In this document: piece after piece, positions 21,745 to 46,070 of the stretch
How positions within the stretch are numbered: the first letter of the stretch is position 1
Layout of the letters: each line of letters opens with the position of its first letter
Made by a program: the position numbers and the translations under genes
Origin: a virus
Lineage: Duplodnaviria > Caudoviricetes
IMG/VR virus record: IMGVR_UViG_3300020042_009006
Location: 1-60,847 of that record
Strand: one strand, 5' to 3'
DNA length: 60,847 nucleotides
Notes under the pieces: model-generated
Seen by the model: only the letters and a program-made list of their open reading frames with translations
The model's database searches: none
Told to the model about the DNA's origin: nothing

Positions 21745-21760
21745 GTAGGAAGATGGAGTT

Positions 21761-29219: not shown

Positions 29220-30230
29220 ATGACTACAACAACTGAAACAACAGCAACCAGCAAACTACACGCTGACCTTGATGAACTAATCAAGGGTGTAGTTCTACAC
29301 AGCACTAAGACAGAGGCTATCCCTGCTATTATGGAAACGCTAATGCCTATCGCTGGTCGTGCGAACCTGCGAGCAAAAGCAGGAACAGCAAAACCAAAGA
29401 CAGCAAAGGCGACCAAAGTGGTAGAACCTATGATTGGCGAGAGCCAATACCTGCGTCCAAATGGACAGGCTTACTATTCTCGTATGTGGGGCGAACACTC
29501 CGACATTGAGGTTCTAAGAACTGCGAGAGCAAACAAGAAGTTCATTTTGCTCTATGGAAGTCCGGGCTGTGGTAAGACAGCACTTGTTGAGGGTGCGTTC
29601 CCAGACGAACTTTACACCTTGCTTGGAACAGGCGACACCGAAGTTTCAGACTTCGTAGGTGGCTACATACAGACACCGAGTGGTGGCTTTGAGTGGGTGG
29701 ACGGAGTTCTGACCAAAGCAGTAGCAGAGGGCAAGGTTCTCTTGATTGACGAAGTTGGTCTGATTGACCCAAAGGTTATGTCTATCGTTTATGGTCTTAT
29801 GGACGGACGAGATGAACTAACTATTTCGTCTAACCCAGAGCGTGGCGTAGTAAAAGCCCAAGAGGGTTTTTATGTAATCTGTGCTACCAACCCGAACGCT
29901 CACGGAGTGCGTCTATCAGAGGCACTTCTATCTCGTTGCCTAATCCAAGCAGAAATGACTACTGATTGGACGCTTGCTAAGAAGTTGGGCGTTCCAGCAC
30001 CAGCAGTTTCAGCAGGTATGAACCTCGCTAAGAAACAACTAGCAGGTGAAGTATCTTGGTCGCCTCAAATGCGAGAACTCCTAGCGTTCCGTGATGTATC
30101 AGAACTCTTTGGTATGAAGTGGGCGATTGGAAACTTGCTTGCGTCAGCACCAGAGATTGACCGAGTTGTGGTCGCTGATGTATTCCGTAGAGTGTTCGGT
30201 GATGATGATTGCCGACCAGCAAAGATTTAG
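29220..30230 (+). CDS. MoxR/CbbQ-NorQ-like AAA+ ATPase
   Basis: GSPGCGKT Walker A, LLIDE Walker B, ATNP, ALLSR. Confidence 0.9.
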   Translation: MTTTTETTATSKLHADLDELIKGVVLHSTKTEAIPAIMETLMPIAGRANLRAKAGTAKPKTAKATKVVEPMIGESQYLRPNGQAYYSRMWGEHSDIEVLRTARANKKFILLYGSPGCGKTALVEGAFPDELYTLLGTGDTEVSDFVGGYIQTPSGGFEWVDGVLTKAVAEGKVLLIDEVGLIDPKVMSIVYGLMDGRDELTISSNPERGVVKAQEGFYVICATNPNAHGVRLSEALLSRCLIQAEMTTDWTLAKKLGVPAPAVSAGMNLAKKQLAGEVSWSPQMRELLAFRDVSELFGMKWAIGNLLASAPEIDRVVVADVFRRVFGDDDCRPAKI

Positions 30231-30393
30231 TGGTTCGTCCTACTAAATCGGGGAGTGCCGAGTTTCCCCACTTGGCACTCCCCACCCTAAAAACTTCATA
30301 AAAACTATTTTTCATTTTTGCTAGAAATGAACTTGCGTAGAAAATAAATCTGTGCTTTACTTATCTTGTTAGCCTAACGAAAGGACAAAACAA

Positions 30394-32220
30394 ATGGCTC
30401 ACTATGTATCACGACTAGACACACGCACCAGCACTACTCCCCCAGAGTGGTTGGCTACTTGCTCACAGATTGGGCAGGTTGTAAATGCTTGGGCAGGTCG
30501 CCACGACCTAGTTGTTTATGCTGGCTCTGACGCTGGCTATGGACATACTGCTTGCTTTATCAAATCGTCTGCTGAAATAGAAATCAACATACCTATCGCT
30601 TTTGGCGAGTGGGCAACCCCAGCGTTCGTTGGCGATTTCACAGACAGAGCCACGCAGTTTGATTGGGCTAATGCCACAGGCGTTATCTACCACGAGGCTT
30701 TACACGCTCGCTATTCAGAGTGGGACATTGAGGCATTAGAGGCTATGCCAGAACAAGTGTTCTCTGTGTTCTCTGTATTGGACGAGGCTCGCATTGAGCG
30801 TTATGGCGTAATCGCTATGCCAGAGAACCAGCCCCTACTAAGAGCGTCTGCTATGAACCTTGCTCTGGGCGACCTTGATGATAAGGCTATTGCTGAAATG
30901 TCTGATGTTCGTCAGGTTGCGTTTGTCTGTGCTTTGGCTATGGCGAGAGTGGACGCTGGCGTTCTAAAACTCTCTGATGTTCGTGCGACCTACGACAAAG
31001 TGATTGAGGTCATTGGTCAGGAACTCTTTGATAACCTACGCTCTATCTGGGTTGAGTTCCAGAAACTACGCACTAGCGAAGTTGAGCGTGGTCGTGAACT
31101 TGCTGAAAAGTGGTTGGCACTTCTAAACGAGGCTGACCCACAACCAGAGGGGGGCTGTGAGTTCCCTAGTGGTGAGGGTGAGGGTGAGGGTGAGGGCGAA
31201 CCAGACCCAACCAAGTCAGGCAAAGGCAAAGGCAAGTTCCTCAAAGAACTCAAAGACGCTATGAACGAGGACGCAGACAACTCTGCTACTGATGTTGAGC
31301 AGAGCCTACAAGACCAGCAGGGCAAAGAGGAACAGCAGAAAGAACTCAAAGAGCGTGGCTCAAAGAGCGAGCGTCAGGCTAAGGCTAAGAAAGAGGCTGG
31401 CAAAGTTTTCTCTAACTCGTCAAGTGGTGGAACAGGAACTACCTACTCCACGCTACAAGAACAGCGTTCGCCAAAAGGCAACGAACGAGCAAGTGCTGTT
31501 CGCCTAGCCCAGATGTTGGACAAGGCAAAGTATCGTGAGCGTTCTATCACCGAAGTCAAGAGCGTTCTGCCACAAGGTCGTCTGAAAACTCGTATCGCTA
31601 TTCAGAACTCGGCTATGAAGTCAAAGGGTATTCACTCGGAACTTCCAGCGTGGCGACACACTAAGCGTAAGCATACTGACGACCCAACTCTCTCTATCGG
31701 AGTAATGGTGGACATTTCAGGTTCTATGTCGTCTGCTATGGAAAGTATGGCTACTACTGCTTGGGTTCTATCAGAGGCAGGTCGCAGAGTTCAGGCGAGA
31801 ACTGCTATGGTCTATTTTGGTCAAGATGTATTCGCAACTCTCAAAGTTGGTCAGAAGTTGGAACAGGTTTCGGTATGGTCAGCACCAGACGGAACGGAAG
31901 TTTTTGGTCGTGCCTTTGACGCTTTGGACGGACACCTAAACCTCGTCTATGGCGAGGGAGTGAAGTTGCTGGTCATTGTGTCGGACGGACACTACACAGG
32001 CAACGAAACACAGAACGCCAAAAACGCTATCAAGATGTGTGCCGATAATGGCGTGGCTGTTCTCTGGCTCGCACCGAACACAGGTTGGTCTGGTTCTATG
32101 GGTGGAACGATTGTCGGTCAGAACGGAGTGGTCGTAGAGAACCTAGATGTGAACGAGATTGCTAATGTGATTGGTAAGTCTGCGACCAACGCTCTACTGA
32201 AAGTTGCGTCTGGTATGTAA
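30394..32220 (+). CDS. vWA-domain partner protein (CobT-like) with N-terminal HEXXH
   Basis: YHEALH, EARIE, acidic GEGE linker, VDISGSM MIDAS, VSDG. Confidence 0.85.
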   Translation: MAHYVSRLDTRTSTTPPEWLATCSQIGQVVNAWAGRHDLVVYAGSDAGYGHTACFIKSSAEIEINIPIAFGEWATPAFVGDFTDRATQFDWANATGVIYHEALHARYSEWDIEALEAMPEQVFSVFSVLDEARIERYGVIAMPENQPLLRASAMNLALGDLDDKAIAEMSDVRQVAFVCALAMARVDAGVLKLSDVRATYDKVIEVIGQELFDNLRSIWVEFQKLRTSEVERGRELAEKWLALLNEADPQPEGGCEFPSGEGEGEGEGEPDPTKSGKGKGKFLKELKDAMNEDADNSATDVEQSLQDQQGKEEQQKELKERGSKSERQAKAKKEAGKVFSNSSSGGTGTTYSTLQEQRSPKGNERASAVRLAQMLDKAKYRERSITEVKSVLPQGRLKTRIAIQNSAMKSKGIHSELPAWRHTKRKHTDDPTLSIGVMVDISGSMSSAMESMATTAWVLSEAGRRVQARTAMVYFGQDVFATLKVGQKLEQVSVWSAPDGTEVFGRAFDALDGHLNLVYGEGVKLLVIVSDGHYTGNETQNAKNAIKMCADNGVAVLWLAPNTGWSGSMGGTIVGQNGVVVENLDVNEIANVIGKSATNALLKVASGM

Positions 32221-32473
32221 AAGAACTCCGTTAGCAGATTGAGCAACTGCCCCCCAACTCTCGCTCTCTGCTAACGGACTAGAACCCCCGATACTTTTTA
32301 TTGTCCTTTCTTGTATCGGGGGTTCGCCTTTATCTGGGTTAGGTTTTCTGGAAACTATTTTTCATTTTTACAAGAGAGATTAGACACACCGAAAAAAGTT
32401 TTGATTAGGTATTGCGTATTCGTGAAAAGTGTGCTTTACTCTTACTAAGCACAAACGAAAGGACGAAACCAAA

Positions 32474-32755
32474 ATGTGTGAAACTTGCGAACAGAACATA
32501 GACGAGGCAGACGACCGAGAACTGCTACTTCTATCGCTGGCTATGATTGGTGGCTTAGTTGAGAACTATGTTGAGGAAGGCTACTGCGACCCTGTGATGT
32601 ATAAGGCTGTGAAGTTGGCAGAGCGTATCACCCTCAAACTAGGGATTGCTGAAATCACCGAGAAGTTTACTTTCCTGAAAATCCAAGCAGGGGAAATCAT
32701 TGAGGCAACTATTGAGCGTGAGGGTCTTGACCTCAAACGAGAGGATTGGTCATAA
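32474..32755 (+). CDS. Hypothetical protein
   Basis: GAAAGGAC RBS. Confidence 0.65.
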   Translation: MCETCEQNIDEADDRELLLLSLAMIGGLVENYVEEGYCDPVMYKAVKLAERITLKLGIAEITEKFTFLKIQAGEIIEATIEREGLDLKREDWS

Positions 32756-33558
32756 TGCCAAATTGGGTTTACAACAGCGTTTCTGTGTATGGAACAAAAG
32801 AAACTATTGAGGCGTTCTACGAAAAGGCGATTGCCCCACACCCTGAAACTTTTGACGCTGAAACTAAAAAGGTTGTCTATACAGACAAGCCAGAGTTCTC
32901 GTTTTGGAACTTTGTTTCCCCACCACAAGACGCAGTAGAGAGTGGCGAATACTTTGGCACTCACGGCTGGGCTGACGGCGAGAAAAAGGGTGATACCCCT
33001 GTGAATTGGTATAATTGGAACAACGATAATTGGAACACCAAGTGGGACGCTTGTGATGTTTATGGCGAAACAACTATCAACAAAGACGGAACTGCTGAAC
33101 TAAGCATTTCTTACAACACGGCTTGGTCTATTCCCGAACCTGTTATGACGGCTATGGTTGAGCAACACCCAGAACTAACTTTCCATTTTTCGTGTGAAGA
33201 AGAACAGGGTTGGGGTGCTGACTATTCAGGCACGGACGGCGAGTTGGTGGAAACCAAATCTTGGGACATACCCGACAGCCACTCCGACTATGTAGAGCGT
33301 GATAATGAGGACGGCTGTATCTGCTCTCACTATGACGACGAGGACGATTGGTATGCCGATTGCCCAAGAGAAACCAAAGAGTTCTTTGTAGAGATTACAC
33401 GGACTTACAAAGTCATAGCCAAAGACGCTGAACAGGCGTGGGAACTAGCAAACGATACTGCTGACGGCTTGGAACTACAAACGGACGAAACTACCTGCGT
33501 GGTCAAGAACGAGAACGGACAGCGTTTGTATCCGATAGCAGAGAACGGCGTGGAGTGA
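32755..33558 (+). CDS. DUF1281/YubB ferredoxin-like domain protein
   Basis: MPNW, WYNWN..NWNTKWDA, TAWSIP. Confidence 0.75.
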   Translation: MPNWVYNSVSVYGTKETIEAFYEKAIAPHPETFDAETKKVVYTDKPEFSFWNFVSPPQDAVESGEYFGTHGWADGEKKGDTPVNWYNWNNDNWNTKWDACDVYGETTINKDGTAELSISYNTAWSIPEPVMTAMVEQHPELTFHFSCEEEQGWGADYSGTDGELVETKSWDIPDSHSDYVERDNEDGCICSHYDDEDDWYADCPRETKEFFVEITRTYKVIAKDAEQAWELANDTADGLELQTDETTCVVKNENGQRLYPIAENGVE

Positions 33559-33761
33559 TGAGCGAACAGGTGATACGGATACGGCTTGGTCATACAAGCG
33601 ACCCCTACACAGAACTAACGAACGGCTCGCTTGGAACGAAGTTGGGTGAACGCATTGACCCCTACGGAGATTTGATTGTTCGTGTGAAGTGGGACAATGG
33701 TTCGTCTATGAGCCTGATTGACGGACACGATAGTTGGACGGAGTTCGTGGAAAATGATTAG
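33555..33761 (+). CDS. DUF4314-like protein
   Basis: DPY..G..GT..D..V.WDNGSSMSL..D. Confidence 0.6.
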   Translation: MMSEQVIRIRLGHTSDPYTELTNGSLGTKLGERIDPYGDLIVRVKWDNGSSMSLIDGHDSWTEFVEND

Positions 33762-34051
33762 CACCAAGACGGGGAATACCCTGCTGGAAACGGAACTTGA
33801 TTGCCGAGAGTGTGGTGCGATAGTCGTGGACTTCTATGAGGTTGAGGGAGTTTCAGACGGACGAGGATACATAAGTTGTTATGAGTGTGGAGAGATAGCC
33901 GAAGTTGAGATTGAGTGAAGTATTTTTCATTTTTACAAGTGAGATAAAAAAAAATAAAAAAACTTGTGAAATGAACTTGACTTATCAGAACTACCTGTGC
34001 TTTACTTATAGAGCAACACACCCAACGACAATCTAACGAAAGGCAAGTCCA

Positions 34052-34423
34052 ATGGGAAACGCAACTAAGAACCAAAGCACCACCACTATCAGCACCACAA
34101 CTCCAAATGTGGTAGTCCTGAAACCAGCACTCCAAAAGCAAGTAAAGAACTTGCGTGATGGGCGTGATTTAGGCAAGCAAGCAAAAGAGATGAGCGAGAA
34201 CGCTCGTCAGGCTCTACTTGACGCACTTGGCTCAATCGCCTCTGACCTTGTTGGAACTGACGCTAAGGGTAAGCGTCTGATTGCTGTAAAGGTAATCCCC
34301 TCGTCCGAAAAGATTGACTTTGAGCGTATGGCAGTAGAGAACCCAGAACTCTACGAACTTGTCCAGACCTACAAAGTCGCCAAAGGTGCTGGTCAGCCTA
34401 CTCTGCGAGTAGATGTTCTCTGA
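34052..34423 (+). CDS. Hypothetical protein, paralog family A
   Basis: IDFERMAVENPELYE, similar to 41762 and 46936. Confidence 0.7.
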   Translation: MGNATKNQSTTTISTTTPNVVVLKPALQKQVKNLRDGRDLGKQAKEMSENARQALLDALGSIASDLVGTDAKGKRLIAVKVIPSSEKIDFERMAVENPELYELVQTYKVAKGAGQPTLRVDVL

Positions 34424-34609
34424 CCAGAACTAGCAACACCCCTATAACTAAATAATCCCCTTTCCGAATAACGCTGGCAGACTTCCTATCGTTTGCCAGC
34501 GTTATTTTTTATCTGGCGATTGGGAAAACTATTTTTCATTTTTACAAGAGAAATAAAAAACACACGAGCCTACTTGTGCGAAGTTGCTTATACCTGTATA
34601 GTCGCTTGT

Positions 34610-35074
34610 ATGAATACAACTTTACTTTTTATCCCCATTGTCTATCTACTAGCAGTTAGCCTACCTATCGTTTTCGCTGACCTGCGTGTAGCACGAGTGC
34701 CTAACAAATACACTCTCCCTGCTCTCTACCTGTGGCTAATCTGTTCTACCACCTACGCTGTTCTATCTGGCGAGTGGCTTTGGTCGCTTGTGCTACCTAT
34801 CATCTTTGGAATAGCGACTTTGCTTGTTGGAGTTTATTTCTCTGGCAAGGGAACTCTGGGTATGGGTGATGTGAAGTTGCTCGTCTTTATGGGTCTATCT
34901 CTATCTTGGAAGTCTGCTTGGGTCTGGTTGCTACTCCCTGCTGGCTCGTTGCTAATCGCATTTGGGATTTTTCTTTTCTACTACTTCACACGAACAAACA
35001 AACTTTCCATAAGACTTGCCCCTGCTATCTACTTCGTGTATCTTATTCTTACAGCAACACTATTTCTGAACTGA
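34610..35074 (+). CDS. Prepilin peptidase (A24 family)
   Basis: Multi-TM; ADLR..RVPN and GMGDVKL aspartate motifs. Confidence 0.85.
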   Translation: MNTTLLFIPIVYLLAVSLPIVFADLRVARVPNKYTLPALYLWLICSTTYAVLSGEWLWSLVLPIIFGIATLLVGVYFSGKGTLGMGDVKLLVFMGLSLSWKSAWVWLLLPAGSLLIAFGIFLFYYFTRTNKLSIRLAPAIYFVYLILTATLFLN

Positions 35075-35088
35075 AAGGACAACTGAAA

Positions 35089-35379
35089 ATGCTAATGCGA
35101 CACGCACTCGGCGAGGTCTTACGAGAACTCCGAAACGAACAGGGTCTAACCCTGCGACAAACTGCTAAGACTTCTTGTATGGCTCTTGGCTACCTCTCTG
35201 AAATAGAACGAGGACACAAGGAAGTTTCGTCCGAAGTCTTGGACAACTTGGCTCGTGGGCTTGGATACGAAACACACGAGGTAATCATCTTGGCTGGATA
35301 CCGACTAGGTGGCTTGGACAGAGTGCCGAACACACCGAGAGAACTTATTGAGCAATACACCGACTTAGTGGCTCGCTAA
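35089..35379 (+). CDS. ClgR-like XRE HTH regulator
   Basis: LGEVLR..R..QG.TLR..LGYLSEIERG.KEVSSE. Confidence 0.8.
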   Translation: MLMRHALGEVLRELRNEQGLTLRQTAKTSCMALGYLSEIERGHKEVSSEVLDNLARGLGYETHEVIILAGYRLGGLDRVPNTPRELIEQYTDLVAR

Positions 35380-35406
35380 GAACACCGAGAGAATAGGAAC
35401 GAACCA

Positions 35407-35613
35407 ATGAACGAACTAAGACTATTGACCAGAACCGAACACGAACACCTAGCCGACTTGGTATTCCAAGAACTACGCAAAGCAACTCACGAGGACACTA
35501 AGCGTATGTGGTTATCTATCGGGGACAAGATTGACGCACAGGTAATCCGAGAGGGATACTCCAACGCTGACGGACGAGAGAACGAAGAACCAGAGATAGA
35601 CCCGACACCATAA
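35407..35613 (+). CDS. Hypothetical protein
   Basis: ATAGGAA RBS. Confidence 0.6.
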   Translation: MNELRLLTRTEHEHLADLVFQELRKATHEDTKRMWLSIGDKIDAQVIREGYSNADGRENEEPEIDPTP

Positions 35614-35788
35614 TCTTTATTCGGTAGCCCGACCCTCTGGGTCGGGTTATCTTTTTGTCGGCTCGGTCTGGAAACTATTTTTCATTTTTACAAGTGGAGT
35701 AAAAAATAATCACCGACCCTACTTGCGAAAACTTCTAATGTTGGTATTCTTATCTCACGACAAAAACCTACTGAAAGGAAAAAATCAA

Positions 35789-36307
35789 ATGGGTATGGAT
35801 GTCTATGGAAAAAACGCCGTCAATCAAACGGGCGAGTATTTTCGCCGTAATGTTTGGGGCTGGCGACCACTCTGGGATTACTGCCTAGACCAACACGGCG
35901 AACTTGCCGGCAAGGTAGAACACGGACACAGCAACGACGGCGACGGGCTTGACGGCGAGGACAGCGTAGCATTGGCTCGCCTCATAAAGACGGCTATCGC
36001 TGACGGCTCGGCGAGTGCCTACATTGAGAAACGCAACGGATACCTCGCAGGCTTGGAACGACCTGCTTGCGAACTCTGCGAGGGAACGGGTATTCGCTCT
36101 GACCAAGTTGGAGTAGAGAACGGAATGCCTGACCGAGAGTTGCCTGACGAGATGAAAATGCTCACGGGTCGCTCGCACGGGTTCTGTAATGCTTGCTCTG
36201 GTGAGGGTAAGCGAGATGCTTGGGAAACTAACTACTTCCTTGACCTTGACGACCTTGCCGAGTTTGCCGAGTTTTTGGAAAACTCTGGTGGGTTCTCAAT
36301 CTGTTAG
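35789..36307 (+). CDS. Hypothetical protein with DnaJ-like CxxCxGxG repeats
   Basis: MGMDVYG, FRRNVWGWRPLW, CELCEGTG, CNACSGEG. Confidence 0.7.
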   Translation: MGMDVYGKNAVNQTGEYFRRNVWGWRPLWDYCLDQHGELAGKVEHGHSNDGDGLDGEDSVALARLIKTAIADGSASAYIEKRNGYLAGLERPACELCEGTGIRSDQVGVENGMPDRELPDEMKMLTGRSHGFCNACSGEGKRDAWETNYFLDLDDLAEFAEFLENSGGFSIC

Positions 36308-36483
36308 ACCATTTCCTATCAACAGGAAAACACCTGAGCAAGTGTCTAAACTGCTCAACTTTTTTGTCTCTCGGTTTAGGAAACATTTTTCATTTTTACA
36401 AGTGAGATAGAAAATAAACTTGCTGATGTCTGTGGTTGTGATTAGTATGAACTTACATAACAAATAACGATTGGAGAAAAGTT

Positions 36484-38042: not shown

Positions 38043-38257
38043 GCCCTAGTCGCTTGTCCCCTATCCAAGCCGACTAGATAAGAGAGCAGGTCAGTTAGTA
38101 AAGTCCCCCTTTACTAACTGCCTGTTTTTTTTTGTTGGTTGGAAGTTTTGGAAACAATTTTTCATTTTTACAAGAGAGATAGAACTAATGGGAAAAAGTT
38201 GAGAGTTTTAGGGTTAGTATTTATGTAGCAACAACAACTAACGAGATAGGAACTCAA

Positions 38258-38479: not shown

Positions 38480-38666
38480 CAATAATCTAAAAAGTCCCCT
38501 AGCCCAAAAAGTTAGGGGACATTTTTTTAGTCAATGTCGTTTAGGCATTTTTCATTTTTACTAGATGAGTTGGAAACTTCTCACGAATAATCAAAAGTTA
38601 GTTTTGGATACGATAATCTTTATTTAGGCAAACGCCAAACAAACTGATAGATAGGAAACTCTCTCA

Positions 38667-39101
38667 ATGGAAACTACTAACAACACCGAAACTCTAACTC
38701 TCCAATACGAGTTGTCTAACAACTGCGAGTGCGTAGATTATGACGAAGATACTGCCACCGAAACTCCTAGCCCTTTCTGCTTGGGTTGCTATGATGACGA
38801 CTTAGACAACATCAAACACGACTTACTAAACAAGTGGATAACTGCTAACGAGTTTGAGTTAGATACACCAATAAAGATTATTGGCTCTAAGATGACTTGG
38901 CGTGGAGTTTCAGGATACAAGATGACGACACCTGAAAACCTAATCTCATCTCTTACAGGTGATTACGACTTCACACTGCGTTTCTACGCCAGCGACGACT
39001 ACAAGACACTACGAGTAGTGCGTTCATCACACGACGAACTTGGTGCGAGTTTTGAGTTTGAGCAAGCGACACCAGACGAGTTAGACGAATACTACAACTA
39101 A
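38667..39101 (+). CDS. Acidic hypothetical protein
   Basis: GATAGGAA start motif. Confidence 0.7.
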   Translation: METTNNTETLTLQYELSNNCECVDYDEDTATETPSPFCLGCYDDDLDNIKHDLLNKWITANEFELDTPIKIIGSKMTWRGVSGYKMTTPENLISSLTGDYDFTLRFYASDDYKTLRVVRSSHDELGASFEFEQATPDELDEYYN

Positions 39102-39241
39102 CTAACTTCACACCGAAATAGTCCCCTTGATTAGTCAGGGGGATTATTTTTTGGTCGCTCTTTCACGAAGGCATTTTTCATTTTTACTAGGTAGATAACA
39201 AACAATAAAAAAATGTCCCCCCCTAGACTTAGGATTGAGTT

Positions 39242-39796
39242 ATGGCTAATACAAACTCACACAAGGCTCTCCCTGAACTTACAGAGCAGAGCGTTCTAAC
39301 ACCGATAAATGCGAACATCACCGAAATCAACTTCGCTCGCCGAGTTGAGATTATGGATAATGGTTGCTGGCTCTGGCACGGAAGTTTCCAACCTGCTAAG
39401 GCTAGTAATGGCTACAAACGCCGACCTTTGCTCTGGTCAGGTCAGGGTCGCCAAAATGGCAAAATGGTATTTGCTCACCGATACGCTTACGAGAGCCGAG
39501 TAAGTGAGTTGCCAAATCAACGCTATTACGCTCTAGAGCAGACTTGCGAACTAGACCTATGCGTAAATCCAAATCATTACGAACTGAAACACCGAGAAAT
39601 CTTTGCTCACAACTCTCACCCTAACTTGATTGCGAGTATCAAGGCTAGACCTAAATGTAAAAATGGACTACACGATAGAACTCCTGAAAATACTTTGATA
39701 CGAAACACAACTCCAACTTGCCGACCTTGCCAAAAGGTTTCTGCCAAAAAAGCGAGCGACAAGTTTCAGGCTAAGAAAAAAGCCAACAAAAAATAA
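39242..39796 (+). CDS. HNH endonuclease-like protein (leaderless)
   Basis: GCWLWHG, AHRYAY, C..LCVNPNH; TAGGAT 6 nt before ATG. Confidence 0.75.
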   Translation: MANTNSHKALPELTEQSVLTPINANITEINFARRVEIMDNGCWLWHGSFQPAKASNGYKRRPLLWSGQGRQNGKMVFAHRYAYESRVSELPNQRYYALEQTCELDLCVNPNHYELKHREIFAHNSHPNLIASIKARPKCKNGLHDRTPENTLIRNTTPTCRPCQKVSAKKASDKFQAKKKANKK

Positions 39797-39963
39797 ACAC
39801 GGAAACTCAAACGCCCAGAGCGAGCGAGGTTGCCTCAGCCATTTTTCATTTTTTCTAGATAGAATGACGACTTCGTGAGAAGTTGTAATAAATGTCTGTG
39901 GTTTGTGATTGACTATCTATGTAAGAGCAACACCCCAAACACCGAATAGATAGGAAAACCGAA

Positions 39964-40365
39964 ATGGCAGTTATAGATTGGGACGAAGTGGAATACGCAC
40001 TAGACGACGCTAAGGCTATCACTTGGGACACTTGCCACAAGATTTATGTTCTTATGGACGACGAGCAGGTTGCCGAAACTCGTGGCTATGGTTATGGTGA
40101 TGAGCCTGATAGTTTCTTTACTTGCGAAGAGAAGACACCGAGCCAAATGCTCTCCATACTAAAAGAGTGGTTTGAGAAGTCCTGTTCCCTGAAGTTTATT
40201 CAGGCAGTAGAAACTAATCACGAAGACGCTAACGCTGGCTATACGAGCCTGATTGAGCAGGGTGCTACCGAATACGAAGTCTGCTGGATTTGTGGCACCG
40301 AAGGTTGCGAAGGTGAGTGCGAAGACGAAGACGAAGACGAAGAAGACGAAGACGAAGAAGATTAG
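39964..40365 (+). CDS. Acidic hypothetical protein
   Basis: GATAGGAA motif; WDTCHKIY; poly-ED tail. Confidence 0.7.
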   Translation: MAVIDWDEVEYALDDAKAITWDTCHKIYVLMDDEQVAETRGYGYGDEPDSFFTCEEKTPSQMLSILKEWFEKSCSLKFIQAVETNHEDANAGYTSLIEQGATEYEVCWICGTEGCEGECEDEDEDEEDEDEED

Positions 40366-40561
40366 TCCAAGTCGCTAGACACCGAAATCCCCCTAGTCAA
40401 AATGGTTAGGGGGATTAGTCTTGCCCAGCACGAACCTTGTTCGTCTAGGCATTTTTCATTTTTTCTAGATGTAGGAAAATAATAATGAAAACACGGAAAG
40501 AAATGTCCGTGGTCAAGGTTATTATTTATGTAGCAACACAAACCAAACGATAGGAAACCAA

Positions 40562-41007
40562 ATGTCCAAGAACACAAAATGCCTAGCCTGTCTAGCAACC
40601 TTTACCAACTCCTACAACTTGTCTTTTTGTGGCGAGTGTGGGGCTGACCAGCAATACCTAATGGAATACCAAACAAACACGGAGAGAACCTTGCCAACTC
40701 AAAACGAACTACTGATTGCTCGCCTAGACGCTCTAATCGCTGAACTAGAACTGACCAAGCAAAACCTAAAAGACCTTGCTGACCTAGTGGGGATTGACCT
40801 GACTACTTCCCCTAGTGGTGATAACTAATGACCAACAAACCAAAAGCAACACCAGAACTATTGGTAGGTCGCCAAGCAAGTTGCTCTATGATTGGCGTTC
40901 AGGGATTTCACGCTATCAAGGCATCAAGCCTAGCCCTAGCGTTCTTTGAGTATCGCCCTGAACACGATTACGATTTCTACTATTGTGGCTGTATTGGGTG
41001 GGACTAG
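40562..41007 (+). CDS. Two hypothetical ORFs (40562-40828; 40828-41007 not in track)
   Basis: GATAGGAA motif; TAATG coupling; second ends YCGCIGWD. Confidence 0.6.
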
Positions 41008-41217
41008 ACCCCCAGACACCGAATAAAAACTTCCCCCCTACTTATTCCAAGGTTCGTAGGGGGGAACTTTTTTGGCTGTCGTTCGTCTAGGGATTTTTCA
41101 TTTTTACTAGATGTATAAAAACTTCATTAGAAGTTGAGATAAATCCAAACCAAAAGTGGTTAGATAGTTATGTAAGCAAAAACGCTTACTCAAGTTAGAT
41201 AGGAAATCTAAACCAAA

Positions 41218-41565
41218 ATGACCAAGCAAGTAATCGTAATCACACCAGAACACGAAGTATCTGTCCAGCAAATGCCAAGCACCAGCCCTGATGAATACAA
41301 CTTTCTAAACACGGCAGTAGCAGGTTGGATACAGGCAGTCGCTCTAGCAGATGACCTAGAAGGTATTACCCTTTGGGTCAATGAAGAAGGTAAGTTGGAT
41401 AACCTGCCCTACAACCCCCTAGCAACTCTCCTTTGGGAAATGTCCTATGGCTTTACTGATGTAATCTGTGGCACAGCAGTCCTAACAGGTGGCACTGATG
41501 ATGAAGGTGAAACACTTCCCCTAACTGATGAGCAGGTCGCCAAAATCTTAGCAGTCGTGAAATAA
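41218..41565 (+). CDS. DUF3846-like protein
   Basis: VAGWIQAV, VNEEGKL..LPYN..A, ICGT. Confidence 0.75.
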   Translation: MTKQVIVITPEHEVSVQQMPSTSPDEYNFLNTAVAGWIQAVALADDLEGITLWVNEEGKLDNLPYNPLATLLWEMSYGFTDVICGTAVLTGGTDDEGETLPLTDEQVAKILAVVK

Positions 41566-41761
41566 CCAAACACGGAAAAGATACTCTGCCAGAAATGGCA
41601 GGGTATTTTTTTGCCCAGCGTTGAGCGAACTTCGTCTAGCCATTTTTCATTTTTTCTAGATGTAAGACCAAAATACAAAGAACTTGTATTTGATGTCGGT
41701 CGTAGGGTATAGAGTGGTCTTACAGCAAAACGCTGAAACCAAAATCAAGGAGATACCAAAA

Positions 41762-42127
41762 ATGGCAACTGCCAAAACAGCCGAGAAGGCAACCAGCAAC
41801 ACCGAGCCTAAGAAGGCTAGAAGCAACAAGAAGGCAACACCAGCAGTATCAGTAGAACTATCAGCAGAAGGCAAGAAGGCACTAGCCGCTTTCCGTGAAG
41901 CCAAGAAGGCAGAAGCCCTAGCCAAAGAGCAGAAGGAAATGGCAGAACTAGCCCTTCGTGAAGCACTAGGCGACCACAAAGAAGGTCTAGTGGAAGGTAT
42001 GGTCGTAGTCAAGGTTGTAAATGGCAAGAACACTCATTTTGACCGAGAACTAATGAAGGAAATCTTCCCAGAAGCCTACCAAGCAACCCTTCGTGAAACT
42101 CTTTACGATTACCTAAGAACTCTCTAA
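41762..42127 (+). CDS. Hypothetical protein, paralog family A
   Basis: FDRELMKEIFPEAYQ. Confidence 0.7.
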   Translation: MATAKTAEKATSNTEPKKARSNKKATPAVSVELSAEGKKALAAFREAKKAEALAKEQKEMAELALREALGDHKEGLVEGMVVVKVVNGKNTHFDRELMKEIFPEAYQATLRETLYDYLRTL

Positions 42128-42314
42128 CACCGAGAGCCAAGCGAACTCCTGAACTTCGGTTCGGGAGTTTCGTTTTATCTTTTTTTGCGTTTCTTGTAGC
42201 CATTTTTCATTTTTTCTAGATACATAGTAAAAAGTGCGACAGCACTTCACACAAAGTAGATAAATGTCGCCCCCTAATGTAAGAATAGAGATACCAAAGA
42301 GATAGGAACTCAAA

Positions 42315-42527
42315 ATGGCAAACCGAAAAGAACTTCAGCAAGTTATCAAGATTGTAGCCAAGCACGGCTGGTCTATCGCCCTAAACAAGAACAACCATTA
42401 CAAGTGGATAGCCCCTAGTGGTGCGTTCTTCTATTCTTCTAGCACTCCAAGCGATAGGCGTAGCCTAGAACGAATAAAGAGAGATTTACGCCGACTAGGC
42501 TTTGACCTGCGAAAACTAGACAACTAA
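42315..42527 (+). CDS. HicA-like toxin/mRNA interferase
   Basis: GW..NHYKW..P.G..STPSD..L...GF. Confidence 0.65.
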   Translation: MANRKELQQVIKIVAKHGWSIALNKNNHYKWIAPSGAFFYSSSTPSDRRSLERIKRDLRRLGFDLRKLDN

Positions 42528-42538
42528 GGAGATACAAA

Positions 42539-42826
42539 ATGGCACTCACTCACGGAGATTACAACTGCGATAGTTGTGGAACTTGGTGCGACCTAGACCC
42601 TGTGGCACTTCTAGGCAGAACCCCTAAACTCTATGGCTTGGAAGACCCCGCTAAAGTCCTAGAACTAACTCACTTCTGGCTCTGTGGCGATTGCTCGCCT
42701 GATTACCCCAATGGTGCTAAAGACTTCTTCACCGAAGATTACTTTGAGATAGAAGAACCCTACTGCTCTGGGTGCGAGGTTGAGCCTGTGCTGGCTTGGG
42801 GAAACTCCTGTGCCTACTGCGACTAA
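42539..42826 (+). CDS. Cys-rich hypothetical protein
   Basis: Four CxxC; AAGGAG RBS. Confidence 0.6.
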   Translation: MALTHGDYNCDSCGTWCDLDPVALLGRTPKLYGLEDPAKVLELTHFWLCGDCSPDYPNGAKDFFTEDYFEIEEPYCSGCEVEPVLAWGNSCAYCD

Positions 42827-43011
42827 CTAAAAGAACTCCCCCTGATAAGTCAGGGGGAACTTTTTTTTCGGCTTTTCGTCTAGCCATTTTTCATTTTTAC
42901 AAGAGAGATAAAAATACTTCGTTAGAAGTAGTTGTAATGTCGGTGGTTTATGGTTTGATAGTTATGTGAGCAACACCGCCCACAAAACTAAAAAAGATAG
43001 GAAGTGCCAGA

Positions 43012-43407
43012 GTGTCCAACGACAACCTAGCAAACCAACTAGCAGAACTACTGAACGAGTTGGAAGAAGTATCAAGCGAACTAAACGACATTGACCTAGA
43101 TGTTGCCAGCGAACTAAAGTCAGCAATAGACGAAGCAGAACAGGCTAAGTCCAACGCCGAAGAAGCAGTCAGCAATCTAGAAGATGTAATCAGCAACCTA
43201 GAAGCAATCTCTCTACCAGACCCTAGCGACCTAGAGAGTGCCACAGACCGACTAGACAAAGCAGTTGCCACAATCAAAGAACTAGCCGAGCAGTTGGAAA
43301 CTCTAGCCCCTAAGTCCCTAACCCTAATCGTCAAGCAGGGTTCGGCAGAGCAGAAGTTTTATCTTCACCCAGACAGCCCAGCCGTGATTGAGATTATCAC
43401 CGAGTAA
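43012..43407 (+). CDS. Acidic coiled-coil protein
   Basis: GATAGGAA motif; heptad pattern. Confidence 0.65.
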   Translation: MSNDNLANQLAELLNELEEVSSELNDIDLDVASELKSAIDEAEQAKSNAEEAVSNLEDVISNLEAISLPDPSDLESATDRLDKAVATIKELAEQLETLAPKSLTLIVKQGSAEQKFYLHPDSPAVIEIITE

Positions 43408-43597
43408 TCTCTCGCTACGAAGAAGTCCCCTTGACCTTAGGAAAGTCAGGGGGATTTTTTTATGCCCAGATTTTTTTGCTTTTCGTGTAGGCATTTTTCA
43501 TTTTTACTAGATAAACTAAACAAAAATGCCAACACGGCATTTTATTTTTTTTTATCTCTGCTACATTGGAACTAGCCAATAGATAGGAGAAACCAAA

Positions 43598-44114
43598 ATG
43601 GCTGAACAGAAAACATTTCCTAGCGTAGTGGAATACCTAAAACAACGAGAGCAAAAACTAGCAGACCTTATAGAGTGGATGTCGGCAACTAACTCCAACT
43701 CCATTGTGGTCAAACTAACCAGAACAGCGTTAGCAGAAGTTAGACACGCTCTACTGATTGCCGAACTAAACGAGCAAAAGACAAAGGAAAACTAAAATGG
43801 CTAAAATCGCAAACTACGAGATAGAGGCACACATCTCGGCACTAGCCCCGTTCATCAACTACAACAGCAGTATTGTTGCTAATCGTGAAAATGGGTTCTA
43901 TCGTGTTTGGCATTGGGAAACACAAATCCTAACTTACAACATCAACACGGGTGTTATAGACCACCTATACTCTCACAATCGCTCTCAAACCACTAGCACC
44001 CTAGTCGGTCGTATCGTTCGTAATCTGCCCCGTCAAGCAGTCGTAAAGTTTCTAGTGGAAACCGAACTTGGCAAGTATGACCGAACTCGTATCGTGAAAA
44101 TGGCGAGATTGTAA
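43598..44114 (+). CDS. Two hypothetical ORFs (43598-43795, 43797-44114)
   Basis: GATAGGAG and AAGGA start motifs. Confidence 0.6.
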
Positions 44115-44306
44115 AAGTCCAAAAGAGATAGCCACGAACTTCGGTTCGTGGTTATTTTTTAGCCTCGTCATCACAAAGGCATTTTTCATTTTTTCTAGAT
44201 GTATAAAACACTTCGTAAGAAGTTGTTGATAAATGTAGGTGGTCGGGTATAGATTGGAAACACGGGATAAGGAAAAGCCAAGTCCCCCAGACAGATAGGA
44301 AGTCTA

Positions 44307-44619
44307 ATGACTACTTACAAGTGCCTAAAGTGTGGTGCTACCACAACAGACCCAAAGCACGCTCTAATCAAGTGGTTCCACGCTAACTGCCCAGCAGAGA
44401 AAGGGGGGAAGTAAAATGGAAGTCAAGTATCCAGAAGTCAAAAAAGTCAAGTTGATTGGTGAAGACGGAAACGCCTTTGCTATTCTTGGTCGGGTAATGA
44501 AAGCGATGAAAGTCGCAGGATTACCGAAAGAAGTCATTGACGCTTACTACACGGAAGCCACAAGTGGCGATTATGACCACTTGCTACAAACCACTATCAA
44601 GTGGGTCAAGACCAAGTAA
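44307..44619 (+). CDS. Two small ORFs (44307-44414 not in track; 44416-44619 GEDGNAF-motif phage protein)
   Basis: GATAGGAA motif; LIGEDGNAFAILG..SGDYDHLL. Confidence 0.65.
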
Positions 44620-44794
44620 AGCCCCGTCAGGTATTCGGTCAATACCTAAAGCCCCCTTGCTCAAAGAGAGCAGGGGGGTTTCCACTTGTCCAGAGAAACG
44701 CATTTTTCATTTTTGCGAGAGTAGGGGAAAAACTTTTTGGAAATCGGGAAAAAATCTCAAACAACTTTAGTTATCTCTAGTGGAAAGGAAATAA

Positions 44795-45316
44795 ATGTTC
44801 ATAGAACGCCCAGAAGACGCAGAGCAAGCAGAACTATTTGCTATGGGTCTAATCAAAGAACCGAAAGACAATGGCACGCTACTCCTTGTCCCTTGTCGCC
44901 ACAAAGTATTCTGCCGAACACACGGAACACTTTGGATACATCTAAGAACCAACAAATCCAAAATCAAAATCAAAACAAGAGAGATACTAGGTAAATGACT
45001 AACCAGAACCCAGACCCAGACCAGAACCCCCTACTGAACCCTAAGTTCCTTGTTGGAGAGAACCCAGACATCAAAGGTTTCCTAGCGTGGCTGTTTGACC
45101 CAGAAGTAGATAAAGCGTTTCAGGAAGCGTTCCCGATTGACGAGAGTGAGCAAGATGAGAACTAAACTAACCCCAGAGCAAATCACCGAACTAGATAAAT
45201 ACCAGACACGGAAAACTTTTGACTTGATAAGAGTTGGTATGGTCTTAGGTCTAGTCCCTTGGTCTAACAAGATTACGATTACTCGCAAAGTTCGCAAACT
45301 GAAAACTGAAATCTAG
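44795..45316 (+). CDS. Three short ORFs (44795-44998, 44995-45165, 45155-45316)
   Basis: GAAAGGA RBS; overlapping start and stop codons. Confidence 0.45.
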
Positions 45317-45494
45317 CCAAGCCTAGCCTAGTAATCCCCGTCATTACTAGGCTCGGCAGGGGTGGTTGGCTAGGCATTTTTCATTTTTCCTAGATGAATA
45401 AAAAAACTTTTGGAAAATGCTAGACACGGCAACTTTTATTTTGTTAGGCTGGTCTTGTTGGAACAATCCAACGCTGAGAGATAGGAAACTCAAA

Positions 45495-45832
45495 ATGAAT
45501 AAGTATGTAATCCGTAGAGCAGTGCTAGGTATCGTAATCACTCCCCTAGTTGCTCTGGTCTGGCTAATCGGTATCGCTGTGCTAATCGGTATGGGTGCTG
45601 AACCAACTGCTAGTGCTAGTCAAGTCTGGGTAGATGGTCTATGGCTTGGCGTGGCAGTATCGGTGGTATTCGCTGGAAGTGTCTGGGGTAAGCGATAATG
45701 GCTAACAAAGATGTCTGGCTAATAGTTGCTTGCTCAATGCTGGTATCTGGCTCGGTAGGTCTGGGCTTTATACTTGGTAGAAACTCCGTCTATCGCAAAC
45801 TGCGAACACGGACTAAAAAATGGCTTGATTAG
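45495..45832 (+). CDS. Two small membrane-protein ORFs (45495-45698, 45698-45832)
   Basis: GATAGGAA motif; TM helices; TAATG coupling. Confidence 0.6.
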
Positions 45833-46070
45833 ATTGTCCTATCCAATCTAATCGGGAGAGATGAAACTCTCTATCGGGGCTAGGCGAAAAGATACCCCCC
45901 TATTTATCGCCTAGCCCCACTTTTATTTTTGCTTTTTCTTTTAGGCATTTTTCATTTTTTCTAGAGTTATGGAAAACTTCGTGAGAAGTTGTAGATAAAT
46001 GTCGTTGGCTGGGTGTAGATTTACTACACGGGATAAATAAAAAAAATCCCCTGAATAGATAGGAAACAAA

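Follow-up and report, generated by a model that had tools for sequence, protein, structure and literature searches.

The region described here belongs to a 60.8-kb record from a freshwater actinobacterial phage (Caudoviricetes, IMGVR_UViG_3300020042_009006), analysed as one window of 60,847 nt. Its features are listed in Table 1. They include an AAA_5 ATPase gene, with a start codon picked by SD context, and a gene for a CobT-like protein that is 42% identical to the "cobalamin biosynthesis protein" of DSL-LC01. Synteny of these two genes holds throughout the family, with no signs of mobility. An occurrence search of the record returned the ribosome-binding site (RBS) words of the initial annotation as given there: GATAGGAA has 13 copies on the + strand, GAAAGGAC lies at 30379, 32457 and 35073, and AGGACGAA at 28666, 29204 and 32460.

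Table 1 Genes, ribosome-binding sites and hairpins of the region (positions in the window)
Feature	Position	Strand	Details
RBS TAGGACGAA	28665..28673	+	Serves 170-aa gene starting at 28681, first in the operon ending at hairpin 30224
RBS AGGACGAA of ATPase gene	29204..29211	+	8-nt antisense match to loop of hairpin 30224-30249
AAA_5 (MoxR/CobS-like) ATPase gene	29220..30230	+	336 aa; Pfam AAA_5, E 5.4e-20
ATPase-end hairpin	30224..30249	+	10 bp, loop UUCGUC, next CU in stem, dG -9.6, z -5.4
Second hairpin after ATPase gene	30250..30283	+	14 bp, C-rich loop UUCCCC
RBS GAAAGGACAA of CobT-like gene	30379..30388	+	
VWA-domain (CobT-like) gene	30394..32220	+	608 aa; Pfam VWA_CoxE, 24.5 bits (under the cutoff of 26.4), E 2.2e-5
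Hairpin A	32227..32278	+	Lower stem, GAGC/GCUC upper stem, 18-nt C-rich loop
Hairpin B	32282..32325	+	13 bp, 18-nt loop with TTGTCCTTTC, dG -23.1, z -6.5
Terminator-type hairpin	34466..34507	+	17 bp then T-run, loop TTCCTATC, dG -26, z -9.1
Small hairpin UUUCCU/AGGAAA	36312..36329	+	Second TTCCTATC, partly inside stem
Hairpin	38046..38077	+	11 pairs, one bulge, loop TCCCCTATC (also listed as UCCCCUAUC), z -5.8
Terminator hairpin	38080..38131	+	Loop UCCCC, T-run
RBS GATAGGAA	45480..45487	+	Two-gene cassette 45495-45832, two small proteins
Hairpin	45824..45856	+	13 bp, loop UCCUAUC (45837-45843), z -5.3
Terminator-type hairpin	45876..45918	+	Loop CCCCCC

Hairpins downstream of the array genes

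The initial annotation had described five 3'-UTR hairpins with loops antisense to RBSs (30224, 32282, 34466, 38046 and 45824). All five were recovered to within 1-3 nt of those coordinates, with strong folds and the loops as described, and 0 of 200 shuffles per hairpin folded as well for any of them. Two details changed: the hairpin placed at 34467-34506 keeps its loop with a stem of 17 rather than 16 bp, and the one placed at 45827-45853 keeps its loop TCCTATC and extends to 45824-45856. The ATPase stop codon TAG (30228-30230) lies inside the 5' arm of hairpin 30224-30249, and hairpin 45824-45856 is built in the same way, with the stop codon TAG (45830-45832) of a 44-aa gene inside its 5' arm. 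Hairpins 30224, 38046 and 45824 lack a T-run, and a second, stronger hairpin comes after each of them.

Plain terminators with a tetraloop and a T-run make up most of the 35 hairpins in the array 3'UTRs. The region is rich in C-rich 5' arms and loops, and the C-rich loops reported beside the five hairpins were recovered at 30250, 32227, 38080/38092, 45321 and 45876; duplex ranking against 46 RBS regions found no own-RBS match for them. The loop of hairpin 30250 had no RBS partner in this ranking, the RBS regions of its own cassette coming 39th and 41st of 46 by duplex energy. The terminator loop at 43419-43461 carries a sense-like CTTAGGAAA, contrary to the antisense pattern.

Antisense matches within the window

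The loop UUCGUC(CU) of hairpin 30224 is antisense to the ATPase gene's own RBS, and the RBS at 28665-28673 has a 9-nt antisense match to 30234-30242. In hairpin B, the loop word UUGUCCUUUC (32301-32310) is antisense to the CobT-like gene's own RBS (30379-30388), and the loop word UUCCUAUC (34483-34490) of hairpin 34466 is antisense to the GATAGGAA RBS family. TCCTATC occurs seven times on the + strand of the record, three times in array 3'UTRs. Seventeen eight-letter words are common to at least 3 of 47 RBS regions, and 5 of the 19 antisense copies of these words on the + strand fall in the 25 array 3'UTRs, at four sites (30234, 32303, 34483 and 36312/3); these UTRs total 2108 nt, about 3.5% of the record, and a uniform spread would predict about 0.7 hits.

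Among the 35 UTR hairpins (at least 8 pairs), 14 matched some RBS region in antisense over at least 7 nt, against a mean of 7.0 with shuffled loops (14 was reached in 1 of 1000 shuffles) and seven each with reversed RBS regions and with sense matching. By these controls, the antisense relation of the loops to the phage's own RBSs that had been proposed goes well beyond chance. The UTR 3' of the ATPase gene matched RBS words of its own operon over 9 and 8 nt, and the 9-nt length was reached by 0 of 42 other RBS regions; the UTR 3' of the CobT-like gene matched its own RBS over 10 nt, a length reached by 1 of 45 others. When RBS regions were ranked by duplex energy, those of the own cassette came 1st to 5th among 46 for each of the five anti-RBS loops. 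Only 2 of the 25 window 3'UTRs fitted RBS regions of their own cassette better than almost any other. At about -13 to -15 kcal/mol, the predicted duplexes are modest, and they would have to form over 1-1.8 kb against competing ribosomes.

Own-RBS matches and co-variation in relatives

The comparison set for the CobT-like gene comprised 67 dereplicated loci drawn from the window, DSL-LC01 and the best 80 of 172 IMG/VR relatives, and each locus was scored by the longest exact antisense match between its own RBS region (-28 to -3) and the 146 nt 3' of the stop codon. The antisense copy had a median length of 9 nt and reached 15 nt; it was at least 7 nt long in 64 of 67 loci, at least 8 in 52 and at least 10 in 33. 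The average for random same-strand windows was 5.3 nt, and in 54 of 67 loci the observed length was reached by at most 5% of control windows. Matches of at least 8 nt were found for 78% of CobT-like (n=67) and 59% of AAA (n=61) genes, compared with 4% of other genes with a 3' gap (n=827; Mann-Whitney p 3e-36 and 2e-25, respectively). Not every locus has the feature: the match was shorter than 7 nt in 3 of 67 CobT-like loci and shorter than 8 nt in about 40% of AAA loci, no complementarity with the own RBS was found in Microbacterium phage Pumpernickel (one cultured relative) or in one genome-contig relative (L214), and the ATPase hairpin of the type-I clade (GCCAAG..CTTGGC) has no anti-RBS loop. 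Orthologues of the ATPase-end hairpin in relatives otherwise have loops that co-vary with the gene's own RBS.

Co-variation was assessed with one representative per RBS type. CobT-like 3' regions matched their own RBS over 9.02 nt and those of other phages over 6.30 nt (42 representatives), and AAA regions over 7.34 and 5.36 nt (44 representatives), with 0 of 10000 label permutations reaching the observed sum for either gene, a test that is inflated by relatedness among the sequences. Fine-scale partner specificity is imperfect: the own RBS was the strict best partner in 8 of 42 and tied best in 9 of 42 CobT-like representatives, and in 5 and 15 of 44 AAA representatives. Unusual CobT-like RBS variants are mirrored by the loop, namely ACAAGAAAGGT (L190/193), AGAGACAGG (L206), GGACACAA (L164), TTTTGGAAAGG (L140-143), CTTTTAGAAAGGG (L142) and CAACGAAAGGACGAA (L136); the sequences of L136 and L206 were re-read directly. 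The match extends to flanks outside SD:16S pairing (CAACGAAAGGACGAA in L136, TGACGGAAGGATA in L163 and AGAGACAGG in L206), and the loop tracks the gene's own variant where the general RBS consensus of the phage differs. In most type-I loci, the matched word is present in one of 13-36 RBS regions. AAA loops likewise track GGACGAA, GGACGGAAA, GGACAGG, AAGGACAC, AGGACTAA, GATAGGACAA, AAGAGAGG, CACAGGGAG, AAGGGAGT, GACACAAC and GACACGAA. Hairpin A bears the conserved motif GAUUGAGC, and in some relatives (L140-143, L142/153 and L145) the own-RBS antisense word lies in the loop of hairpin A.

The matched words sit in exposed positions, with 85% of their letters unpaired in the local MFE fold compared with 49% in the surroundings, and 53 of 64 words at least 70% unpaired. 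Across 18 type-I hairpins with 14 stem pairs, 95.9% of cells were paired, compared with 37-51% in slid registers, and both sides had changed in 13 of 14 pairs, matched by 0 of 500 shuffles. Many of these cells are G.U, which would be A.C mismatches if read on the other strand. Judged by sequence, the stems form genuine helices of + strand RNA. Counts of A.C and G.U in the helix flanks did not discriminate (33 versus 9 for CobT-like, 11 versus 7 for AAA). Conservation of the loops in relatives, set beforehand as a test of the earlier proposal, was found together with co-variation for two of the five hairpins (30224 and 32282). Metatranscriptome contigs span parts of the region and carry no transcript-end, strand or pairing information.

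Models for loop function

Given the own-RBS match and the co-variation of loop and RBS in relatives, hairpin 30224 and hairpin 32282 (with 32227-32278) are best explained as conserved self-targeting 3'-end RNA elements rather than generic trans-acting anti-SD RNAs, a reading to which we give a probability of about 0.6. Pairing of loop and RBS in the cell, and repression by such pairing, would follow from this reading. They would work like the 3'UTR of the Staphylococcus aureus icaR message, in which UCCCCUG pairs with the SD; action in cis and in trans was not separable there either (PMC3868564). In Bacillus subtilis, pairing of the RBS with anti-SD-like 8-mers hundreds of nt downstream promotes decay and prevents initiation (PMC12697547).

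The initial annotation had instead proposed stable trans-acting anti-SD RNAs, derived from 3'UTRs or terminator fragments, that shut off many phage cassettes or host mRNAs. We consider this unlikely overall. In its favour can be cited the GATAGGA-type loops (34466, 38046 and 45824). These loops and the GATAGGAA ribosome sites occur together in this lineage only (GATAGG is counted 0 times in the closest relative, L133, and twice in L135). Hairpin 34466 is a strong terminator (17 bp and T-run), the type of fragment able to persist; antisense matches of its loop and inner stem run to 12-13 nt with RBS regions in two distant cassettes (40545 and 44294) and to 8 nt with 12 GATAGGAA sites, and its own gene's RBS pairs imperfectly (dG -14.5, rank 5 of 46). 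This hairpin may act in trans, although part of this complementarity is buried in the stem. The best duplex of hairpin 38046 among 46 RBS regions is an imperfect one with the first RBS of its own cassette (37231, dG -13.0), and the orthologous 3'UTRs of relatives have C-rich loops beside G-rich own-RBS words. Hairpin 45824, for which the own-cassette RBS ranks 5th of 46, would have that cassette as its target. All three loops most likely share the pairing logic of hairpins 30224 and 32282, here against the GATAGGAA sites of this phage and in cis or in trans, although they fit 13 RBS regions about equally well. At the two hairpins that can be compared, the loop follows the adjacent gene's RBS including its non-SD flanks, and not the phage's general consensus or the 16S-complementary core, which argues against a generic anti-SD family directed at host SD-led mRNAs or at all early cassettes. 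The restriction to these genes (4% of 827 others) speaks in the same direction, as does the search result: neither a sign of separate stable small RNAs in the metatranscriptome contigs nor a match to an Rfam sRNA family was found.

The 3' end of 16S rRNA, as quoted in the initial annotation, is CCUCCUUUCU, and many loops resemble this tail (GUCCUUUCU in the window and CCCCCUUUC in relatives). Protein-binding sites or decoys that mimic the tail and titrate, for example, a ribonuclease toxin or an RNA-binding regulator could account for this, and for the C-rich loops that lack an RBS partner. Phages sharing host ribosomes would be expected to keep a decoy unchanged, yet the loops co-vary with own-RBS letters outside the 16S-complementary core (UGACGG.., CAACGA.., ..ACAA) and with two leader words that lie upstream of the SD (GACACAAC and GACACGAA), and we regard such a role as improbable.

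That the hairpins are merely terminators or 3' stabilisers, resembling RBSs through composition (pyrimidine-rich loops, purine-rich sites) and chance, seems very improbable. It would fit the ordinary terminators and C-rich arms and loops of the array, the T-run after hairpin 34466 and the sense-like word at 43419-43461, but the signal is not reproduced by shuffled loops, random same-strand windows, other genes' 3' regions or cross-phage permutation. At 11-25 nt, moreover, the loops are unusually long, they are conserved where the stems vary, and three of the hairpins lack a T-run and precede a stronger one. A DNA-level origin, with RBS word and inverted copy as terminal inverted repeats or recombination sites of a mobile gene cassette, can be set aside as highly implausible: a 7-15-bp inverted repeat does bracket each of the two genes in a region built of cassettes, but the 3' copy always lies in the loop of a hairpin in which compensatory changes and sense-strand-specific G.U pairs maintain the stem, the 5' copy is a working SD correctly spaced to the start codon, and the genes are syntenic without mobility signs.

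If the elements are self-targeting, pairing of the loop with the RBS of its own message would hide the RBS from 30S subunits and probably expose the mRNA to decay, and each transcript would therefore yield a limited burst of protein. At the ATPase hairpin and at 45824, terminating ribosomes would have to melt the hairpin that holds the stop codon, which would couple the switch to ribosome traffic. We infer action in cis for these elements from the gene-by-gene match. At the ends of two neighbouring genes, in this phage and in dozens of its relatives, loops that mirror the RBS of the same gene point to mRNAs that silence themselves at the level of translation.

The cassette array and its 3' hairpins

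The complete record (60,847 bases) represents a freshwater actinobacterial kind of phage, whose ribonucleotide reductase shares 76% identity with its counterpart in Actinomycetia phage DSL-LC01 and whose 608-aa VWA/CobT-like protein shares 42% identity with a DSL-LC01 protein. Searches with megablast and blastn found no nucleotide-level relative of the array among named phages. Near-identical sequence (73-85% of sampled words) was present in 15 runs from 11 studies of 2015-2025, out of 20 runs with matching sequence in 16 studies; the 15 are labelled freshwater metagenome (12), fungus metagenome (2) or viral metagenome (1). The phage seems to have a wide distribution among lakes.

The sequence TTTTTCATTTTT occurs 25 times on the + strand between 26783 and 48245, where about 0.9 copies are expected; NC(T/A)AGA follows every copy, and the whole looks like a phage-specific promoter or regulator-site array. 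The cassette plan runs from this promoter-like sequence through a leader of about 80 nt and a very uniform ribosome-binding site (RBS) to 1-4 small genes and 1-3 hairpins, and in many cassettes the leader is preceded by three elements: the small hairpin AACTTCGTNAGAAGTT, the block GATAAATGTCGGTGGT and one resembling TATGTA. Two RBS families were distinguished, GAAAGGAC/AGGACGAA in the first cassettes and GATAGGAA, with 13 copies, from 38.2 kb onward. In four metatranscriptome runs, assembled contigs overlap stretches between 28.3 and 48.2 kb. Downstream of motif 34532, the next cassette (34585-34612) is without an SD-like word and has TATAGT 7 nt ahead of its ATG, an arrangement that may mark a leaderless start. 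DSL-LC01 (L125, positions 16484-34994 of the locus) has an analogous cassette array with a different promoter word of the extended -10 type, (GA)TTCTAAAGATGTTATAAT, in 16-17 copies, and with the RBS ACGACGAAAGGACAA in 17-18 copies.

An initial annotation had described hairpins in the 3'UTRs of this array whose loops are antisense to its RBS motifs, and had read them as a family of anti-SD RNAs. All of the hairpins it listed are present and fold far better than shuffled sequences (z from -5.2 to -9.6; 0 of 200 shuffles for each), and their loop sequences are as it described. Some details needed amendment: the hairpin starting at 34466 has a stem of 17 pairs instead of 16, the one placed at 45827-45853 extends beyond these ends (Table), and in hairpin 30224 the loop holds UUCGUC as claimed, but the next CU is paired.

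Within the window, 14 of 35 UTR hairpins are antisense to one or another RBS region over 7 nt or more, compared with 7.0 for shuffled loops (1 of 1000 reaches 14), 7 for reversed RBS regions and 7 for sense matching. TCCTATC occurs seven times on the + strand, three of them in array 3'UTRs. Antisense copies of 17 consensus RBS 8-mers number 19, and five of these, at four sites, lie inside array 3'UTRs, which make up about 3.5% of the record by summed lengths. The loop/RBS antisense enrichment inside the window is real but modest, and the array hairpins are mostly ordinary terminators with tetraloops. The loop of terminator hairpin 43419-43461, CTTAGGAAA, resembles a sense RBS word, not an antisense one.

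Table. Features of the phage record and words shared by the CobT-like RBS and its 3' loop in the window and its relatives (L-numbers denote loci of relatives)
Feature	Word	Positions or loci	Remark
tmRNA gene, full-length		5853-6193	Rfam RF00023, 149 bits, E 1e-58
tRNA directly after tmRNA gene		6195-6266
Three further tRNA genes		10759-10830; 10947-11020; 11554-11626
AAA_5 ATPase gene		29220-30230	+ strand
VWA/CobT-like gene		30394-32220	+ strand
Hairpin 30224		30224-30249	end of ATPase gene
Hairpin 32282		32282-32325	end of CobT-like gene
Hairpin 34466		34466-34507
Hairpin 38046		38046-38077
Hairpin 45824		45824-45856
RBS of gene 44416, unusually G-rich	GAAAGGGGGGAAG	44398-44412
Co-varying CobT-like RBS/loop word	GAAAGGACAA	window, L188, L200
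Co-varying CobT-like RBS/loop word	CAACGAAAGGACGAA	L136	re-read directly
Co-varying CobT-like RBS/loop word	TTTTGGAAAGG	L140-143
Co-varying CobT-like RBS/loop word	CTTTTAGAAAGGG	L142
Co-varying CobT-like RBS/loop word	GAAAGGAACGG	L145
Co-varying CobT-like RBS/loop word	TGACGGAAGGAT(A)	many type-I loci
Co-varying CobT-like RBS/loop word	ACAAGAAAGGT	L190/193
Co-varying CobT-like RBS/loop word	AGAGACAGG	L206	re-read directly
Co-varying CobT-like RBS/loop word	GGACACAA	L164
Co-varying CobT-like RBS/loop word	GAGAGGAA	L179/180

Hairpin loops and ribosome sites of the CobT-like and ATPase genes

Scans of IMG/VR with the promoter motif gave no hit, or single chance hits (L007-L124) that were left unused, and a metagenome scan with the same motif returned 7 short contigs with 96-99.5% identity to the window. 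These contigs show hairpins 38046 and 45824 without change, and are too close to the window for this to be informative. Since the promoter motif found only near-identical metagenome fragments, the conserved VWA/CobT-like protein was used as the anchor. An alignment of five homologues (A1) led to 172 IMG/VR relatives, and the best 80 of the 172 (41-68% identity) were taken, which, with the window and DSL-LC01, gave 67 non-identical loci for the own-RBS comparison.

Nearly all of the best 80 relatives have a long-looped hairpin with a C/U-rich loop word directly 3' of the CobT-like stop codon, the stems being unrelated in sequence between relatives. This loop word is antisense to the RBS of the CobT-like gene itself, about 1.8 kb upstream. 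DSL-LC01 also has this hairpin, with GTCCTTT in its loop, the single + strand copy of that word in the 41.8-kb stretch of this phage that was analysed; in the window, GCCTTTATC lies directly 3' of hairpin 32282. As a measure, we took the longest exact antisense match between a gene's own RBS region and the 146 nt after its stop codon. The results showed a median of 9 nt and a maximum of 15 over the 67 loci, with at least 7 nt in 64, at least 8 nt in 52 and at least 10 nt in 33.

The words shared by RBS and loop differ among the relatives (Table), and several of them hold letters outside any SD:16S pairing. In the type-I phages, one clade of the relatives, the general RBS consensus is ACGACGAAAGGAC, and the CobT-like loop matches the gene's own TGACGGAAGG variant instead, which is present in only 1 of 13-36 RBS regions at most type-I loci. 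The idea that the loops act as a decoy for the 16S tail or as a protein site is therefore disfavoured, because they co-vary with non-SD letters.

Folding gave a consistent picture of how the word is presented: in local folds the matched word is 85% unpaired, compared with 49% for its surroundings. In the stems of 18 type-I hairpins, 95.9% of cells are paired and 13 of 14 pairs are changed on both sides, which 0 of 500 shuffles equalled, and slid registers gave 37-51% paired; many G.U pairs point to the sense strand. Judged by this comparison, compensatory change has kept the CobT-like hairpin stems paired. With a plain MAFFT alignment of the two-hairpin form (A2), RNAalifold gave 5 pairs only, because that alignment was not structure-aware, and trimmed hairpins were taken instead. 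At the flanks of the loop-RBS helix, G.U and A.C showed no discrimination. An inverted repeat working at the DNA level is disfavoured by the display of the word in a loop and by the sense-strand G.U pairs.

The upper part of the first 3' hairpin after the CobT-like gene contains a conserved G(A/G)TTGAGC (32238-32245 in the window, and many relatives among L133-L159), which recurs in the 3'UTRs of gene-37656 orthologues. In one metatranscriptome contig, from run X18, position 32440 is connected back to 30374 through 14 letters of other sequence; this contig may come from a related variant with another arrangement around the CobT-like gene or be an assembly artefact.

Same-strand random windows at the same loci gave a mean match of 5.3 nt, and at 54 of the 67 loci no more than 5% of the control windows were as long as the observed match. 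With one representative per RBS type (42), the CobT-like value was 9.02 nt for the own RBS and 6.30 for the RBSs of other phages, and 0 of 10,000 label permutations reached the observed sum, although relatedness inflates such tests. The own RBS was the strict best in 8 of the 42 and tied for best in 9, so the signal is strong for word families and imperfect per single letter.

The AAA_5 ATPase gene (Pfam E 5e-20), directly upstream of the CobT-like gene, ends in a short hairpin whose 5' arm contains the stop codon (..GATTTAG..) and whose loop mirrors the ATPase's own RBS. More than 15 co-varying loop/RBS variants were found among the relatives; for 44 representatives the own value was 7.34 and the cross-phage value 5.36, and again 0 of 10,000 permutations reached the observed sum. 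In the window, hairpin 30224 is complementary to both RBS words of its own operon, to one over 9 nt and to the other over 8; a 9-nt match is seen for none of 42 other RBS regions. The ATPase gene of the type-I clade is without the loop-RBS feature.

A match of at least 8 nt was found for 78% of CobT-like genes and 59% of ATPase genes, compared with 4% of 827 other genes with a 3' gap at the same loci; the property therefore belongs to the ATPase and CobT-like pair. Own-RBS complementarity is no general habit of these genomes, nor a by-product of purine RBSs and pyrimidine loops. Composition or chance does not explain the match, since shuffled loops, random windows, other genes and cross-phage permutation all fall short of it. 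The complementarity was not found, by eye, in the cultured relative Microbacterium phage Pumpernickel, nor in L214, the sole relative from a genome-contig scan, and on the sequences compared the feature fades in distant relatives.

The initial annotation had looked to covariation of the loops across related phages, and the CobT-like and ATPase loops do change together with their own RBS. Its interpretation finds partial support, in that the loops do target ribosome sites; the host or array-wide target that it proposed does not hold for the conserved cases, where the comparison points to the gene's own ribosome site as the target.

Remaining hairpins of the array

Only this lineage has the GATAGGAA RBS family and the anti-GATAGGA loops, GATAGG being found 0 and 2 times in the closest relatives, L133 and L135. 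The loops of hairpins 34466 and 45824 match 12-13 GATAGGA(A) sites; the words of the conserved hairpins are found in 1-5 RBS regions per locus. Hairpin 45824 is built like the ATPase hairpin, with the stop codon in its 5' arm and a 7-nt loop, and its own-cassette RBS, a GATAGGAA site, ranks 5th of 46 by duplex energy. Hairpin 38046 forms its best though imperfect duplex with the first RBS of its own cassette (1st of 46), and its orthologous 3'UTRs have C-rich loops beside G-rich own RBS words, with weak counts. For orthologues of genes 34052 and 37656 the own-RBS match is suggestive in some (e.g. L139, L133, L145) and weak overall.

Hairpin 34466 has an antisense match of 12-13 nt, spanning its loop and inner stem, with the RBS regions of two distant cassettes (40545 and 44294), and pairs only imperfectly with the RBS of its own gene. 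For this hairpin, the pattern of complementarity makes the trans model of the initial annotation a live option. Terminator features (a G+C-rich stem plus a T-run) are present in 34466, 38092 and others, 34466 being a true terminator; hairpins 30224, 38046 and 45824 have weak stems, no T-run and a second hairpin after them. The neighbouring C-rich loops (30250, 32228, 38092, 45321, 45876) match no own RBS, and partners for them within their own cassettes are not above background. Taken over the whole record, gene 44416, with its G-rich RBS, supplies the best predicted partner for several of these loops.

Comparison with known systems and proposed function

In hok of plasmid R1, a toxin mRNA that is activated by 3' processing and controlled by Sok antisense RNA, the 3' end (fbi) of the full-length mRNA pairs with the 5' translational region (tac) and keeps the message closed until the 3' end is changed. 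The phage messages would likewise bring an mRNA 3' end to the 5' translational region, by pairing of loop to SD, and neither a partner antisense RNA nor processing as in hok was seen at the phage hairpins. RNAIII and RsaE of S. aureus and the actinobacterial 6C RNA use C/U-rich hairpin loops to seed on G-rich SD regions, and several window 3'UTRs resemble 6C RNA in having two C-rich-loop hairpins. The phage elements differ from these RNAs in lying at gene ends and matching the adjacent gene, not a regulon. Rfam 15 assigned no family to the window hairpins at the gathering score, and at E<=10 no sRNA family, 6C included, was found on 32200-32360 or in relatives L135, L140, L147 and L151, so a 6C-RNA identity was dropped.

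By analogy, the closest precedent for the putative self-targeting hairpins is icaR of S. aureus, where the word UCCCCUG in the 3'UTR base-pairs with the message's own SD, keeps the initiation complex from forming and yields a substrate for RNase III (Ruiz de los Mozos et al. 2013, PMC3868564). The icaR and phage cases share a pyrimidine-rich anti-SD word in the 3'UTR with complementarity to the message's own SD, a proposed block of initiation and the question of cis versus trans action (PMC3868564). The ATPase and CobT-like genes both have such a word in the 3' end of the same unit, in a hairpin loop 0-95 nt past the stop codon, whereas the icaR word lies in a long 3'UTR, and the exact match of 7-15 nt in the phages compares with about 40 nt in icaR (PMC3868564). 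The own SD is favoured over those of other genes, imperfectly at the fine scale (CobT-like strict or tied best in 17 of 42), and predicted loop-RBS duplex energies are -13 to -15 kcal/mol. The phage case further differs in that one gene has its stop codon inside the stem, that two adjacent phage genes, not a bacterial regulator, each have their own matched loop, and that its support is comparative (co-variation in dozens of phages) rather than experimental.

For B. subtilis, a preprint reports on synthetic substitutions in which anti-SD-like 8-mers lie hundreds of nucleotides 3' of the RBS: they pair with it in vivo, accelerate mRNA decay and inhibit initiation. Natural genes are depleted of anti-SD-like words, and a possible role of such self-interactions in sensing ribosome traffic is put forward there (Gill et al. 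2025, PMC12697547). Unlike the natural genes described in that work (PMC12697547), the phages have such words fixed in place and matched to the flanks of their own RBS, and natural selection appears, from this comparison, to keep anti-RBS words in these phages. A 5'/3'-UTR contact within one mRNA also ties stability to translation in B. subtilis hbs; as far as the source describes it, that contact concerns ribonuclease access in a highly structured 5'UTR (Braun et al. 2017, PMC5737220).

The known kind to which the phage hairpins would belong is 3'UTR-to-SD self-pairing, and what seems new is its occurrence in phages, its presentation in a loop by or over the stop codon, and the extensive natural co-variation. 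Once the 3' hairpin is transcribed, its loop would close the gene's own RBS, so that only a limited burst of protein would come from each message. With the stop codon inside the stem, ribosomes that terminate would have to melt the hairpin, and the switch may therefore read ribosome traffic. We speculate, at roughly one chance in five, that a widespread freshwater actinophage clade has a modular, ribosome-gated, self-limiting switch, in which a hairpin at or over the stop codon shows the antisense of the gene's own RBS and ribosome traffic decides between open and closed, the device being perhaps re-targeted here to the GATAGGAA family, with at least one copy (34466) a phage-made anti-RBS riboregulator working in trans over a 13-cassette regulon.

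To our knowledge, bacterial messages have yielded no more than a handful of single examples of a natural long-range contact between 3' region and SD, and a limited search of the literature, which does not prove absence, found no phage example. Here dozens of divergent phage genomes repeat one design in two neighbouring genes, and ribosome site and loop change together, which is evidence of a sort mostly confined to classic structured RNAs. The phage hairpins offer a test bed for cis versus trans action of 3'-to-SD contacts, and a reason to scan gene ends, besides leaders, when phage regulation is annotated. If confirmed, they would be a compact natural part for setting the protein yield per transcript.
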